The translations under genes were made by a program, and so were the position numbers. This document shows, in pieces, positions 1 through 48,869 of a stretch of 49,912 bases of DNA (the first letter of the stretch is position 1; every line of letters begins with the position of its first letter). Below the pieces are notes generated by a model that saw only the letters and a program-made list of their open reading frames with translations, had not been told where the DNA came from and searched no databases. This DNA is from a phage: sequence record OZ335956.1; one strand, 5' to 3'.

Positions 1-1569
1 ATGATTCAATGGGAAGAACTCGACGCAACTCAGAAGTTGGCGATCAAGAAAATGAGCGAGGCCAATTTCGAAAAAATGATTCGGATCTGGTTCCAGCTTA
101 TGCAGGCTCAGCAGTTCCAGCCTAACTGGCATCACCTTTACCTATGTCACGAAGTGGAGGAAATTATTGCAGGCCGACGCGGGAACACTATCTTTAACGT
201 CACTCCAGGCTCCGGTAAAACTGAGGTATTCTCAATTCACCTTCCTGTATACGCGATGCTCAAGTGTAAGAAGGTGCGAAACCTTAACGTGTCGTTTGCC
301 GACAGTCTGGTGAAGCGTAACAGTAAGCGCGTGCGTGAGATTATCAGCAGCAACGAGTTCCAGGAGCTATGGCCTTGCAAGTTTGGCACATCGAAAGACG
401 AAGAGATGCAAGTGCTTAATGACGATGGAAAGGTTTGGTTTGAGTTAATCTCCGCTGCGGCTGGCGGTCGTATTACTGGTTCGCGTGGTGGCTACATGAT
501 GCCGGGATTTTCCGGGATGGTAATGCTCGACGATATCGACAAGCCTGATGATATGTTCTCAAAGGTTAAGCGTGAGCGTACGCATATGCTATTGAAGAAC
601 ACCATTCGATCCCGTCGTATGCATAACGAAACTCCAATTATCGCAATACAGCAGCGACTACACGCACAAGATTCGACGTGGTTCATGATGAATGGCGGCA
701 TGGGTATTGAGTTCGATCAGATCTCAATTCCGGCACTAGTAACTGAAGAGTACGGCAAGACGCTTCCTGACTGGTTACAGCCTTACTTTGAGCGCGACGT
801 TTTGTCGTCTGAATATGTAGAGTTGGATGGAGTTAAGCATTACTCATTCTGGCCCAGCAAGGAAAGCGTTCACGACCTGTTAGCGCTTCGAGAAGCGGAC
901 CAGTATACCTTTGACTCTCAGTATCAGCAGAAGCCGATCGCGCTTGGTGGCTCCGTGTTTAACTCTGAGTGGTGGACTTATTACGGTAGCAGCCTTGACG
1001 CTGACGAGCCAGATCCGGGTAAATATGATTACCGTTTTATCACTGCCGATACCGCTCAGAAGACAGGCGAGCTAAACGACTACACGGTCTTTTGTTTGTG
1101 GGGCAAGAAAAACGATAAGGTTTACTTTATTGACGGCATTCGCGGTAAGTGGGAAGCGCCTGATATGGAGAAACAATTTACCGCATTCGTTAATCAGGCG
1201 TGGAGACACAATAAATCAATGGGTGTGCTTCGCAAAATTTACGTGGAAGATAAAGCGAGCGGTACGGGGCTGATCCAGAATCTCAGGAAAAAGACCCCGA
1301 TCTCTATCACTCCATTGCAGCGTAACAAAGACAAAGTTACCCGCGCGATGGATGCTCAGCCAGTCATCAAGGCTGGGCGCGTAGTTCTTCCAGAAGAGCA
1401 CCCTATGCTCGCGGAAATTATCGCAGAACATAGCGCGTTCACTTACGATGACACGCATCCGCACGACGATATTGTCGATAACTTCATGGACGCTGCAAAC
1501 ATTGAGCTACTGACAATTGACGATCCTATCGAGCGAATGAAGCGACTCGCCGGGATGGTTAAGCGGTAA
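1..1569 (+). CDS. terminase large subunit
   Basis: 522-aa ORF starting at window base 1 with RBS GGAGA at window end (49901-49905); ATPase-like N-terminal region (GSGKTEV) and nuclease-like C-terminal half; directly downstream of putative small terminase when window is circularised. Confidence 0.8.
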   Translation: MIQWEELDATQKLAIKKMSEANFEKMIRIWFQLMQAQQFQPNWHHLYLCHEVEEIIAGRRGNTIFNVTPGSGKTEVFSIHLPVYAMLKCKKVRNLNVSFADSLVKRNSKRVREIISSNEFQELWPCKFGTSKDEEMQVLNDDGKVWFELISAAAGGRITGSRGGYMMPGFSGMVMLDDIDKPDDMFSKVKRERTHMLLKNTIRSRRMHNETPIIAIQQRLHAQDSTWFMMNGGMGIEFDQISIPALVTEEYGKTLPDWLQPYFERDVLSSEYVELDGVKHYSFWPSKESVHDLLALREADQYTFDSQYQQKPIALGGSVFNSEWWTYYGSSLDADEPDPGKYDYRFITADTAQKTGELNDYTVFCLWGKKNDKVYFIDGIRGKWEAPDMEKQFTAFVNQAWRHNKSMGVLRKIYVEDKASGTGLIQNLRKKTPISITPLQRNKDKVTRAMDAQPVIKAGRVVLPEEHPMLAEIIAEHSAFTYDDTHPHDDIVDNFMDAANIELLTIDDPIERMKRLAGMVKR

Positions 1570-9129: not shown

Positions 9130-9798
9130 ATGCACTTACCAAATGGCGCACAAATTTTCGTAGAAACCTCTCGCGGCGATGAGATTGATGCTTCTGCGGT
9201 TAGCAATGCTGAGCGACCCGTTGCAACGGTAGCATCTAAGGGTGATTTAGCTAAAGGTGATTACGTTATTGTAACTCAGTCAACTTGGGCTAAAATTGTT
9301 AGCCGAGTCCTTATTGTGACCGACGCTCAAGAAACAGAAATTACACTGGCTGGAATTGACACATCTGATACTCTTGTTTTCCCGTCTGGCGGCACAATGA
9401 GTTTTGCAAAAATTACTGGTTGGACTGAGATTCCATGCGTGCAGGAGATTGGTCAGGACGGTGGCGAGCAGCAGTATTACACGTATCAGTGTTTGTCTGA
9501 CGACAAAGAGCAGCAGATCCCGACTTTTAAATCTGCGATCTCGCTAACTTATACTTTTGCTCACGAATTTGATAACCCGATCTACCCGATTCTGCGCAAG
9601 CTGGATGCATCTGGTCAGGTAACTGCGGTTCGAATGTATGTACCTAAAGCAAGTGAGATGCGTATGTGGGCTGGCATCTTATCGTTTAACGACATTCCAT
9701 CCACGCAGGTTAACGAGATGGAAACGGTTGAATTATCCGTATCCCTGAAAGGTGACTTTACTTTCGTATCTTCCACTCTAGCATCGCCTGGTGCTTAA
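9130..9798 (+). CDS. major tail protein (putative)
   Basis: ATG 9130 with RBS AAGGAGA; 222 aa; immediately upstream of chaperone frameshift pair. Confidence 0.55.
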   Translation: MHLPNGAQIFVETSRGDEIDASAVSNAERPVATVASKGDLAKGDYVIVTQSTWAKIVSRVLIVTDAQETEITLAGIDTSDTLVFPSGGTMSFAKITGWTEIPCVQEIGQDGGEQQYYTYQCLSDDKEQQIPTFKSAISLTYTFAHEFDNPIYPILRKLDASGQVTAVRMYVPKASEMRMWAGILSFNDIPSTQVNEMETVELSVSLKGDFTFVSSTLASPGA

Positions 9799-19530: not shown

Positions 19531-19536
19531 CAGAAA

Positions 19537-19559
19537 GGGGCCGATTGGCCCCTTTTTTT
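19537..19559. terminator. bidirectional terminator
   Basis: GGGGCCGATTGGCCCC flanked by A-run upstream and T7 downstream; lies between convergent genes. Confidence 0.6.
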
Positions 19560-20591
19560 AATACATGTTTGGAGTGAAAGGAATTGGCATTGAAATGTTT
19601 ATGTTGAATGGGAATTGAGCGCCGCTCTGAGTAGAATAGTTACCTACCATCGTTCCTGGTGCGCTTCTAACGTTACCTCCGCTCATGCACACGCCCTTGT
19701 ATCGGATGTTATTATATCCACCTGTAACCCTGCATATTGTGCCAGTTCTCAGTATTGGGAAAAATCCACCGCACCACTGCCAGCCGTCATTTATCGCCAT
19801 AGTCCCGCCGAGAACGAAGGGGCGTCTAACGCTTGAGAAAACGATCTGACCAGCGGGATTGCTCATAGTAATTCCCGGTCCTGGAGGTGGTGGAGTGTTA
19901 TTAAATATTACGAGTTGCACGTATACGCTCGCGCCAACGTCATCAATCCCGTTATAGTTTGCATCCCTACACCATATAGTATTTCCGTCAGATTCAAGTG
20001 TTACGTTTGGGTTATCCCACATACCGAAAGGAACGCCCTGGACTGGCAATTGAGCCTGACCGTTAACCTGGATGCCTCCAACAAATGCGGCACTCATCAA
20101 CCTTGCGTTATTCGGTATCGCTGCGAAGTTGGTTGAATCGTTGACAAGTATCCCCTGATTTCCTGCCTGAGCGGGGAGAATTTCGTAACAGTTGCCATAA
20201 AATCTCATCCTTCTTCCACCGTGACCGTTAAAATTCCCTACCGTTATTCGCCCGGTTGAATCATTAACCTTCTGAAAGCTGGTTAAATAATACACCTCAG
20301 GAATATAATATTCCCTACCGTTATTCGCCCGGTTGAATCATTAACCTTCTGAAAGCTGGTTAAATAATACACCTCAGGAATATAATTCATGTCGTCTATG
20401 TAGATGGACTGAGATGGAAGGCAAAAAGCAGTAGATCCAGGACTCATTTGCAGACCAAAATCAAAAACCGATCCCGATGAGTCAACGCCGTCCGCTTGTA
20501 TTGGTCCGCACCATGACGGTGCGCGAAGCCCCGAGGTTATCTCCATTGCCGGACGACCGTCATTTAAGTTTATGTATATTCCTTGTCCCAT
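19558..20591 (-). pseudogene. putative receptor-binding protein gene, frameshifted by a 77-bp tandem duplication
   Basis: two - strand ORFs (20283..20600 and 19558..20295) both contain YYLTSFQKVNDSTGRITVGN; removing one 77-bp copy restores a single 966-nt (321-aa) Gly/Asn-rich ORF. Confidence 0.55.
20233..20386. repeat. perfect tandem duplication, 2 x 77 bp
   Basis: 20233-20309 and 20310-20386 are identical on direct comparison; 77 is not a multiple of 3. Confidence 0.9.
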
Positions 20592-20593
20592 AA

Positions 20594-20824
20594 TTACCAC
20601 TCTTTAGTTTTGATTGACACCTTGCCGCTAAAGTTTCCCTGGTCGTCGTCTGATGACAGACCTTTGAATCGCATGTCGATTTCTCCAGCGGGAACATTCT
20701 GCCCGTCAACGAATCGCATCATGCAAGAACCGTACGCGTAAGTAACACAGTCGCCATTTTTAAGATTCTGAGCGCAACCAGTCAGGATGAATGCAGAAGC
20801 GATAATGGTGATTAATTTTTTCAT
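20594..20824 (-). CDS. small lipoprotein, superinfection-exclusion-like (Llp/Cor-type candidate)
   Basis: 76 aa; signal peptide with lipobox ILTGC; sits directly upstream of the putative receptor-binding protein gene on the same strand. Confidence 0.55.
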   Translation of the reverse strand: MKKLITIIASAFILTGCAQNLKNGDCVTYAYGSCMMRFVDGQNVPAGEIDMRFKGLSSDDDQGNFSGKVSIKTKEW

Positions 20825-20879: not shown

Positions 20880-21290
20880 CAATAGCTCGATTACAATTTT
20901 TTCGTGTAACAGGTGTCTATTTTTGTAACCGGAATAGGTGTTACAAAATCGACCCCATCCGACCGCAGGGAGATATGATAAAAACTCTATATAATATATA
21001 TAGATAGATAATATTTAATTTTAGCTTTATATATATAATTATTGTTGTGTAACAGTTGTCTATCGTGTAACAGGTGATTTGATTGATTCGTCAAATTTCT
21101 ATCATATATGTTCAAAATTTAATCAATAGGGATTCCATTTATGGATATCTATGTATTTCTAAGAAAAAGCGGTTACAAGTGTTACGCAATAGACAGCACA
21201 CAAAAACTGACTCAAGTTATTGATTCAGTTGATGCTGGTTGTAACTTGAGCAATATAGACACGCAATTACACACCAATTACATGTATTCG
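20880..21290. promoter_or_regulatory. AT-rich divergent control region with repeated words
   Basis: non-coding; GTGTAACAG(G/T)TGTCTAT at 20904 and 21048, inverted copy near 21169-21195, AT-rich tract 20980-21050. Confidence 0.45.
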
Positions 21291-23184: not shown

Positions 23185-23598
23185 ATGCATATTATCACTG
23201 GCGAGATCCGAAAAGAACCTAAGATTCTTGAACGTAACGGAGGCAATACTTATATTATTGAACTGGCAGAGAGTTACAAGCCGCGTGATGGCGATCGAGA
23301 ATACACCAACTATACATTCTTTTTCAGCGATGGTGGGAAGCCCGGACTTGCTGATTGGTATCGTGAAGCGTTCCAGGTTGGTCGCGTCGTATCAGTATCG
23401 TGCGAGACGTTGAAGATCTCATCCCGCGAGCACAACGGAACGGTTTACAATTCATTGCAGGCGGCTGATTTTCCTAAGTTGATATTCAGCCAACGAGGAC
23501 AAAGCAACCAACAACGAGCGCCACAGCAACAACAGCGAACGCAATCACATCAACAGCCAAATCCTCAATCAACTTTCGACGATGATATCCCGTTCTAA
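23185..23598 (+). CDS. ssb: single-stranded DNA-binding protein
   Basis: 137 aa; Q/P-rich linker and C-terminal DDDIPF, the hallmark acidic SSB tail. Confidence 0.8.
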   Translation: MHIITGEIRKEPKILERNGGNTYIIELAESYKPRDGDREYTNYTFFFSDGGKPGLADWYREAFQVGRVVSVSCETLKISSREHNGTVYNSLQAADFPKLIFSQRGQSNQQRAPQQQQRTQSHQQPNPQSTFDDDIPF

Positions 23599-39377: not shown

Positions 39378-39413
39378 TTGTTGCATTCTCCTGATTAACC
39401 TTATCGCTTACCC

Positions 39414-39539
39414 TTATCGCTTACCCTGACCGTTGCAAGCCGGACACGTGATTCGCTGCATTGTCCAGACTCCAGTGAATAAAGGAACCAGGGTAAATCC
39501 ACGACCAGCGCACTGACTACAAACCTGTTTAACTTTCAT
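39414..39539 (-). CDS. zinc-ribbon mini-protein (41 aa)
   Basis: CSQC...CPAC pairs; leader caaccaatcagaagaggaag matches the module leader. Confidence 0.4.
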   Translation of the reverse strand: MKVKQVCSQCAGRGFTLVPLFTGVWTMQRITCPACNGQGKR

Positions 39540-39617: not shown

Positions 39618-40226
39618 TTCCAATAATTGCTTATTATTCCATCAATGCTGGAATAGGTGGAATAATTTTGATTCCGATTGATTGCAAATGATGAAACATG
39701 ATTATTGCATGGTGTGCAACAGTTGGTTGATTTATTGCTGAGATTACAATGATTGTGAGAGGGAGGATCTAGTGTTACCCGGTTCGCCTGGTAGTCATCT
39801 CCATTTTTAGCAAAAAGTGCTACCGATTACACTTTAACTTGTCACTGCTGTAATATTTGTCTAGAATCACACTTGTGACAAAATTACGCACTGTGACACC
39901 TCACAATATACATATAGATATATGTATCTATATAATATATATAGTATTTTTTTTATTTATATATATAGATAATTATATTGTAATAATTGTGTATAGTTGT
40001 CTTACATTGTCTAGCGTACTGTTGGCATATTTCTATCTGCATGTTTATATATACAGTACTTTTTTGAGAGCTATATATTTCTATATGGACTCTAGACAGC
40101 TAGACAAATGTTACACGGCTTAAAATCGGCTTGCAGGCATTGACAACTCTACGTCGCGCTGTCACAATGGCAATTGTTGACACGTTATGACGCCATTTAC
40201 ACGCAAATAGACAAAGAGGATATATT
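39618..40226. promoter_or_regulatory. AT-rich divergent control region (candidate origin or early promoter cluster)
   Basis: non-coding; five GGAAT/ATTCC repeats at 39617-39675; sigma70-like TTGTCA-17-TAGAAT at 39839-39867; palindrome ATAGATA-tatg-TATCTAT; imperfect palindrome TGTCACAAT..ATTGTTGACA near 40160-40185. Confidence 0.5.
39808..39822. promoter_or_regulatory. palindromic motif site, perfect TAGCA-N5-TGCTA
   Basis: tagcaaaaagtgcta. Confidence 0.55.
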
Positions 40227-40742
40227 ATGAGCAATACCAATCAGGAATTAAAAATCACCGATATGATTCGCCTAACCTGCGATGCAATGTACCGCGACAA
40301 AGGCATGAAAGAGTTCTCTTTCGTGGCTGATGATATGGCGAGAGAGGCGGTAAAATTTTACTTCCGAGATCAGGATATTTCAGATGATGAGGTGGAGCGC
40401 GGAGCTACCGGGTGGGTGAACCAGAACCAGGGCGAGGTGGAGAAGCGATTCAAGTCGGCTTTCATCACCCCGATCATTACCCGACACTTCTGCAAGTATG
40501 GCAAGGTGGCAAAGGTTAAGGTAGGCAGGAATGACGCAGCAATCACTATGATAACCGTTACCGTTACCGACGAAGAGGCTCCGGTGAAGAAGCGCCGCAG
40601 CCGGAAGAAAGTTAGCCTGGCTGATTGCCTGGACTCGTTTGTGGTGGATGTGCGTAAGTTGGCTGATAGCGAGCTAATGACACGTGATGTGAATGAGATC
40701 GTGCGCCAGATGAAAGAGCATATTGAAAAGTGTGGACTGTAA
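40227..40742 (+). CDS. hypothetical early protein
   Basis: 171-aa ORF, first gene of rightward early block; RBS AAGAGGA. Confidence 0.55.
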   Translation: MSNTNQELKITDMIRLTCDAMYRDKGMKEFSFVADDMAREAVKFYFRDQDISDDEVERGATGWVNQNQGEVEKRFKSAFITPIITRHFCKYGKVAKVKVGRNDAAITMITVTVTDEEAPVKKRRSRKKVSLADCLDSFVVDVRKLADSELMTRDVNEIVRQMKEHIEKCGL

Positions 40743-48569: not shown

Positions 48570-48707
48570 TAATCCCGTAGACAGACGAGGCGCAACGAAG
48601 CGCAACGCGTGAGACGATTCTCACTCTTCCAGCTAACAAGCTCGGTTGCATAGTGGTTAAGCAACGCCGCAGACCCGTAAGCGGCAACAATTCAAGAGGA
48701 TTGCATA

Positions 48708-48869
48708 ATGCAAAACACTAAAGACGAATCAGTCAAAATTGAAATTAAAGTAACTCGCAACGGCAAAACCACTCGTTATAAGAAACGTTTGAATCCGGGC
48801 GAGGCTGTTATTGGTCGCATTTCTGGCGTTATGATTAAGGCGCAGGAAGATGAAGCGATTCAAAGTTAA
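48708..48869 (+). CDS. small hypothetical protein (53 aa, below track cutoff)
   Basis: ATG 48708 with RBS AAGAGGA downstream of a structured ~140-nt leader. Confidence 0.4.
   Translation: MQNTKDESVKIEIKVTRNGKTTRYKKRLNPGEAVIGRISGVMIKAQEDEAIQS

Follow-up and report, generated by a model that had tools for sequence, protein, structure and literature searches.

A probable untrimmed assembly overlap behind the 77-bp tandem repeat in the receptor-binding gene of a T1-like phage record

A perfect tandem repeat inside the receptor-binding gene of a phage raises the question of its origin. It may be a change in the phage DNA that breaks the gene, or a trace left by the assembly of the sequence. We studied this question in the phage record OZ335956.1, whose 49,912 nucleotides are the window of this work (the whole stretch of DNA that was analysed). 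The features that we discuss are listed in Table 1.

Table 1. Features of the window, with their positions and the evidence or remarks for each.
Feature	Position	Strand	Remarks
Terminase large subunit (terL) gene	1..1569	+	Base 1 is its ATG, equivalent to UP30 position 9687, where the terL CDS begins; PF17289
J-like tail tip (central fibre) protein, 1149 aa	16081..19530	+	PF24801, PF13550, PF09327; UP30 annotation
Bidirectional terminator hairpin that separates the convergent genes J and RBP	19532..19557		Folding; SA32RD annotation
Predicted LptD-type receptor-binding protein (RBP) gene, DUF6453	19558..20600	-	Annotated ATG at 20591; split into 20283..20600 and 19558..20295; 318 aa with one copy removed
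Substitution in the RBP gene versus UP30	19649		A here, C in UP30; R289M
Copy 1 of the 77-bp unit	20233..20309		Identical to 20310-20386; single copy in relatives; would have been the terminal k-mer (last 77 bases) of the linear contig before rotation
Copy 2 of the 77-bp unit	20310..20386		Would have opened the linear contig as its first 77 bases; 20309/20310 would be the rotation join
Variant base that directly follows copy 2	20387		T in the window; UP30, the Logan contig and 4 further relatives have C, and ISF001 has G; D69N in the RBP
76-aa lipoprotein, lipobox LTGC, Rtp45 homologue	20594..20824	-	PF24052, E = 1.2e-23; PDB 9RPS_D, E = 4.3e-9

The repeat and the divided reading frame

The comparison of the window with itself shows two exact copies of a 77-bp unit that directly abut each other. 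TRF reports the same interval (20233-20386) with a period of 77 and 2.1 copies. The identity extends 0 bases further to the left and 0 to the right, which leaves 0 bp of microhomology at either boundary. At the junction of the copies, GGAATATAAT is followed directly by ATTCCCTACC. The 77-mer starts with ATTCCCTACC and ends with GGAATATAAT. The same junction can also be written as ACACCTCAGGAATATAAT followed by ATTCCCTACCGTTATTCG. A repeat of this length is far beyond the chance expectation. No other exact repeat of at least 30 bp is found in the 49,912-bp window, and a chance origin of the pair is therefore excluded.

The repeat splits a minus-strand gene into two ORFs, of 105 aa (20283..20600) and 245 aa (19558..20295). 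Both of them contain YYLTSFQKVNDSTGRITVGN. If one copy is collapsed, a single frame results. It comprises 966 nt (321 aa) from an upstream GTG, or 957 nt (318 aa) from the ATG annotated in all the relatives. A preliminary description of this DNA had given the coordinates and the perfect identity of the copies, the two ORFs that share YYLTSFQKVNDSTGRITVGN and the restoration of a 966-nt frame. The comparison, TRF and the ORF list agree with it on all these points, the frame length being the one counted from the GTG. It had also proposed that the duplication frameshifts a putative receptor-binding gene, either as a very recent event or as an assembly artefact. If real, the phage would be a receptor-binding mutant or carry a reversible on/off switch.

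A split protein with re-initiation at the GTG of the 245-aa ORF was also considered. We looked for a plausible Shine-Dalgarno sequence, or another usable ribosome-binding site at the right spacing from this codon, and found none. The candidate was rejected.

The receptor-binding gene and its neighbours

The restored protein matches the Pfam family DUF6453 over its whole length (E = 2.9e-126) and phrog_1265. It is also a full-length homologue of chain C in the PDB entries 9RPT, 9RPW and 9RQI, with an E value of 1.7e-66 for 9RPT_C (residues 1-318 versus 1-321). The 9RPT chain C is the RBP of the phage Oekolampad, whose structure was determined in complex with the lipopolysaccharide translocon LptDE (bioRxiv 10.1101/2025.07.07.663478). 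Likewise, the homologue of TheodorHerzl shows 38.8% identity over 100% of the query, and hosts resistant to TheodorHerzl carry lptD mutations (PMC8594841). The LptD-specific RBP family has been delimited by more than 30% identity, at about full coverage, to the RBP of an LptD-dependent phage (10.64898/2026.04.02.716166), and the values for TheodorHerzl place the restored protein inside these limits. Judged by this homology, the gene is an LptD-type RBP gene, and the use of LptD as receptor is predicted. The preliminary assignment to a putative receptor-binding gene is thus well founded.

The protein resembles the LptD-binding RBPs of small siphophages, such as that of Oekolampad (Bas18; chain C of the three entries above) and the protein Rtp44. 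The likeness consists of the full-length homology, the position directly downstream of a J-like gene and the pairing with an Rtp45-like lipoprotein. On the other hand, the phage is a Tunavirus and not a Dhillonvirus or a Rogunavirus. The identity to TheodorHerzl is about 39%, and the receptor is predicted here from homology, unlike for the known LptD-binding RBPs.

The lipoprotein gene is located upstream of the RBP gene and has the same orientation. Rtp45, its homologue, is a superinfection-exclusion lipoprotein that binds LptDE and was solved on this complex (10.1101/2025.07.07.663478). The protein of the window is similar to the exclusion lipoproteins of the Rtp45, Llp and Cor types. It is small, carries the lipobox, lies beside the RBP gene, belongs to PF24052 and is homologous to the LptDE-bound Rtp45 (9RPS_D). 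Its function is predicted. It differs from the Cor family in that the profile match is weak and covers the signal peptide only (phrog_1119, E = 1.9e-5, residues 1-33).

The RBP locus is directly downstream of the J-like gene and convergent with it, in the order J(+), RBP(-), lipoprotein(-). The hairpin between J and RBP folds with -18.6 kcal/mol on the plus strand and -16.8 kcal/mol on the minus strand (z = -4.6 and -4.3). In SA32RD, a terminator is annotated on both strands at this hairpin. The consensus terminator scan missed it, and it was detected by folding. By the order and homology of its genes, this is a standard LptD-type RBP locus, as known from small siphophages, with a superinfection-exclusion lipoprotein; the functions are predicted.

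Other short elements are present in the window. A 17-bp motif, GTGTAACAG[G/T]TGTCTAT, occurs twice, at 20904-20920(+) and 21047-21063(+), in a divergent intergenic region that is AT-rich and lies upstream of the lipoprotein/RBP operon. It is found once more, with 3 mismatches, at 40100-40116(-), upstream of the early gene at 40227 (chance expectation, 0.10 matches). This motif is probably a regulatory operator or a promoter element. TRF also reports two short imperfect tandem arrays, at 23491-23538 (period 21, 2.3 copies) and 39395-39427 (period 13, 2.5 copies).

Single copies in the relatives and the source of the repeat

The window is a Tunavirus (T1-like) genome and is essentially identical to the Escherichia phage UP30 (OX638287.1, 49,834 bp), although rotated. 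It begins exactly at the ATG of terL, which indicates that the sequence was re-oriented after assembly. The base-by-base comparison with UP30 gives the extra 77 bp, three substitutions (19649, 20387 and 48655) and one extra T at 40226. Nothing else differs. In the UP30 record, the place of the extra T is exactly the junction of end and start, and the Logan contig ERR11523139_67 has this T too. Judging from these sequences, the UP30 GenBank record looks one T short at its own junction, as by a one-base trimming error. Since the T is common to the window and the Logan contig, the true genome has 49,835 bp, and the window has this length plus exactly 77.

UP30 has a single copy of the 77-bp unit. 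The Logan contig of the run ERR11523139 (49,804 bp) also has a single copy, followed by C. It is an independent contig built from raw reads, with an assembler and a k that differ from those proposed below for the window. About 30 relatives with full coverage match with 1523-1526 bp against a 1601-bp query from the window, and the 6 relatives aligned across the site all have one copy. The two-copy state appears in none of 69 related records. Among the 337 phage records with the RBP, 328 carry the protein as one full-length piece. In a collection of 15 billion proteins, the UP30 form is the only one present; both fragment proteins, a variant with an ATG start and the restored protein with N69 and M289 are absent from it. 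A scan of the IMG/VR viral contigs gave 0 matches for the copy-to-copy junction, and the control, the wild-type junction of the unit with its right flank, also gave 0.

At each of the three SNP sites, UP30 and the Logan contig differ from the window. They represent a near-identical sister consensus and not the library of the window itself, so that their single copy is not a strict proof of a single copy in the window.

T1 packages its DNA by a headful mechanism. The records show a genome that assembles circularly: the window and UP30 are one circle in two rotations, and the Logan contig crosses the junction of the UP30 record. The start point varies among the records of the relatives, and that of Shfl1 is labelled circular. 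When SPAdes assembles circularly permuted phages, its contigs have identical 77-bp ends that curators must remove (PMC9409062). The same terminal-overlap artefact is described with 127 bp (PMC5923482). Furthermore, Pharokka and Dnaapler re-orient phage genomes to the terminase large subunit (PMC13338908).

The repeat of the window resembles these overlaps. It is perfect, its length is that of an assembler word, and it is found in a genome that assembles as a circle. As in those cases, removing one copy restores the true sequence and rejoins a gene that would span the contig ends. The difference is in the location. The usual copies are at the two ends of the record, and here they are adjacent and internal, by a rotation to terL that would have preceded trimming. 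In this place they look like a frameshifting tandem duplication.

The 77-bp repeat is very probably such an untrimmed overlap of a k=77 contig, of the SPAdes type, and not a property of the phage DNA. This reading starts from what the records contain: the repeat, its length, the single copy elsewhere, the rotation and the position of the SNP. The assembler, the polymorphism in the reads and the order of the processing are the reconstructed steps. A de Bruijn assembler with k=77 (in SPAdes, the usual largest word for reads of about 150 nt) would have assembled the circularly permuted, T1-like genome as a loop. The loop would have been written as a linear contig whose first 77 bases and last 77 bases are the same k-mer. 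The cut would fall at the 77-mer directly before a polymorphic C/T at 20387, within the RBP gene, where this 77-mer would be a branch vertex of the graph. A rotation of the contig to the terL ATG, with the overlap left untrimmed, would then place both copies side by side inside the sequence, at 20309/20310.

Four features, independent of one another, lead to this mechanism: the length, the rotation, the absence of microhomology and the place of the SNP. When the vertices of a de Bruijn graph are 77-mers, a polymorphic site opens a bubble at the 77-mer whose last base directly precedes the site. The SNP at 20387, 1 of only 3 versus UP30, abuts copy 2, for which the chance is about 3 x 2/49,835 (roughly 1e-4). 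We simulated the k=77 graph for the circle with one copy, both alleles (C/T) being present at 20387. The sole out-branching vertex was the duplicated 77-mer. The loop contig from this vertex had 49,912 bp and identical ends and, rotated untrimmed to terL, was the window base for base. This reconstruction is partly true by construction, considering that any tandem repeat equals a cut circle with its overlap kept, and the only part that is non-trivial is the agreement of the vertex with the SNP.

The same artefact could have come by another route: a manual or tool-based circularisation, a contig merge that duplicated the overlap, or a different assembler, the 77 bp then being incidental. The single-copy evidence applies equally to this explanation, and the rotation to terL shows that the sequence was edited after assembly. 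However, it predicts neither the length nor the position of the repeat. In contrast, an overlap of specifically 77 is what has been reported when circularly permuted phages are assembled with SPAdes, and the SNP-adjacent site fits a k=77 vertex exactly. We consider these other routes very unlikely. That the repeat is an assembly artefact of one kind or another is almost certain.

A real, very recent tandem duplication, fixed or frequent in the lysate, would give a truncated LptD-binding RBP, and thus a receptor-binding mutant or an RBP in two pieces. The repeat is, after all, present in the sequence as given. D69N and R289M versus UP30 are in the same gene, which may be evolving quickly. These two non-synonymous SNPs could also be compatible with a lineage under real selection at the RBP, and this counts against an artefact. 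The Logan contig of a related read set is also broken in the RBP gene, hinting at heterogeneity. Nevertheless, a length that exactly equals an assembler k would be a coincidence, and the SNP at the end of the repeat would be a second one. Slippage-type duplications normally rely on short flanking repeats, and the lack of microhomology at the boundaries counts for an artefact and against slippage. The phage was evidently propagated, yet a repeat of 77 bp, a length that 3 does not divide, would destroy its RBP, which favours an artefact. A plaque-forming phage would lose its only dedicated RBP through the frameshift, and the absence of a plausible Shine-Dalgarno at the GTG of the 245-aa fragment stands against a two-piece protein. 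The duplication is also missing from the 69 related records, as are both fragments from the protein collection. So a real duplication is quite unlikely. There is an equally small chance that some or all phages of the population physically carry it. In that case, it would be a spontaneous knockout or split of the RBP, revertible by recombination, and the lysate would be a mixture of RBP-on and RBP-off phages.

The last explanation is a reversible switch, in which the gain or loss of one 77-bp copy toggles the expression of the RBP in the population. Recombination could in principle remove one copy of a perfect tandem repeat and so restore the frame. In this, the repeat is similar to the genuine frameshifting or phase-variable repeats of phage tail-fibre genes and bacterial surface genes, having two direct copies whose number sets the frame. 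Real repeat switches are built on short repeat tracts or microhomology and recur among relatives. Unlike them, the repeat of the window is a single 77-bp unit, without microhomology and in this one sequence only. The two-copy state recurs neither in the related records nor in the read-based Logan contig. Likewise, neither a repeat tract nor microhomology that would form the duplication again at this site is present in the sequence with one copy. A virion with the RBP off cannot infect, and the off state has no obvious benefit. We found no positive evidence for a reversible switch, which is extremely improbable.

Returning to the alternatives of the preliminary description, the artefact is strongly favoured over the recent event. 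The length of a standard assembler k, the rotation, the single copy in UP30, the Logan contig and the relatives, and the SNP at the boundary of the k-mer vertex all point to it. With this evidence, the frameshift as a biological event and the receptor-binding mutant lose their support. The same is true of the switch, for which no relative has the two-copy state and no sequence feature would regenerate it. The real phage most likely has a genome of 49,835 bp and an intact RBP gene of 318 aa.

Changes in the receptor-binding protein and the meaning of the record

Two of the three SNPs versus UP30 in the whole genome are non-synonymous changes in the RBP (D69N and R289M). N69 is also present in 3 of 13 close RBP homologues. 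Conversely, R289 is invariant in the 13 homologues and is replaced by M in the window. The two changes could be those of a host-range variant or consensus noise. The third substitution, at 48655 (G here, T in UP30 and the Logan contig), is intergenic and lies upstream of a 53-aa ORF at 48708-48869.

The Logan contig ends at 19772 and restarts at 19804. It covers all the circle except 31 bases (19773-19803) in the RBP gene, which encode the loop TMAINDGWQW. This gap may reflect read-level heterogeneity in a variable loop of the RBP, or merely the linearisation of a loop contig. Similarly, the 'partial genome' record of Sfin-2 (MK972831.1) is cut in the same gene near 19886 (about 19885-19888), at a poly-proline stretch, and has no terminal overlap. 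Together with the proposed contig ends of the window at 20309/20310, three assemblies break inside the 957-bp RBP gene, which is about 2% of the genome. These breaks hint at RBP heterogeneity within lysates, which would create branch points in the assembly graph.

The finding concerns the quality of the data and not the biology of the phage. Taken at face value, the record gives a genome that is 77 bp too long and an RBP gene in the form of two false ORFs. It could pass for a natural RBP knockout or a switch, and it would mislead receptor-prediction models trained on this locus. As a diagnostic, when a genome starts at terL and has a perfect internal tandem repeat with the length of an assembler k, the repeat should be presumed to be an untrimmed overlap until the reads contradict it. 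The record is to be corrected to 49,835 bp with one CDS of 318 aa, which gives a normal LptD-type RBP with its superinfection-exclusion module. The real biological residue is small. It consists of the two amino acid changes of the RBP versus UP30, and of the tendency of the assemblies of this group to break in the RBP gene.
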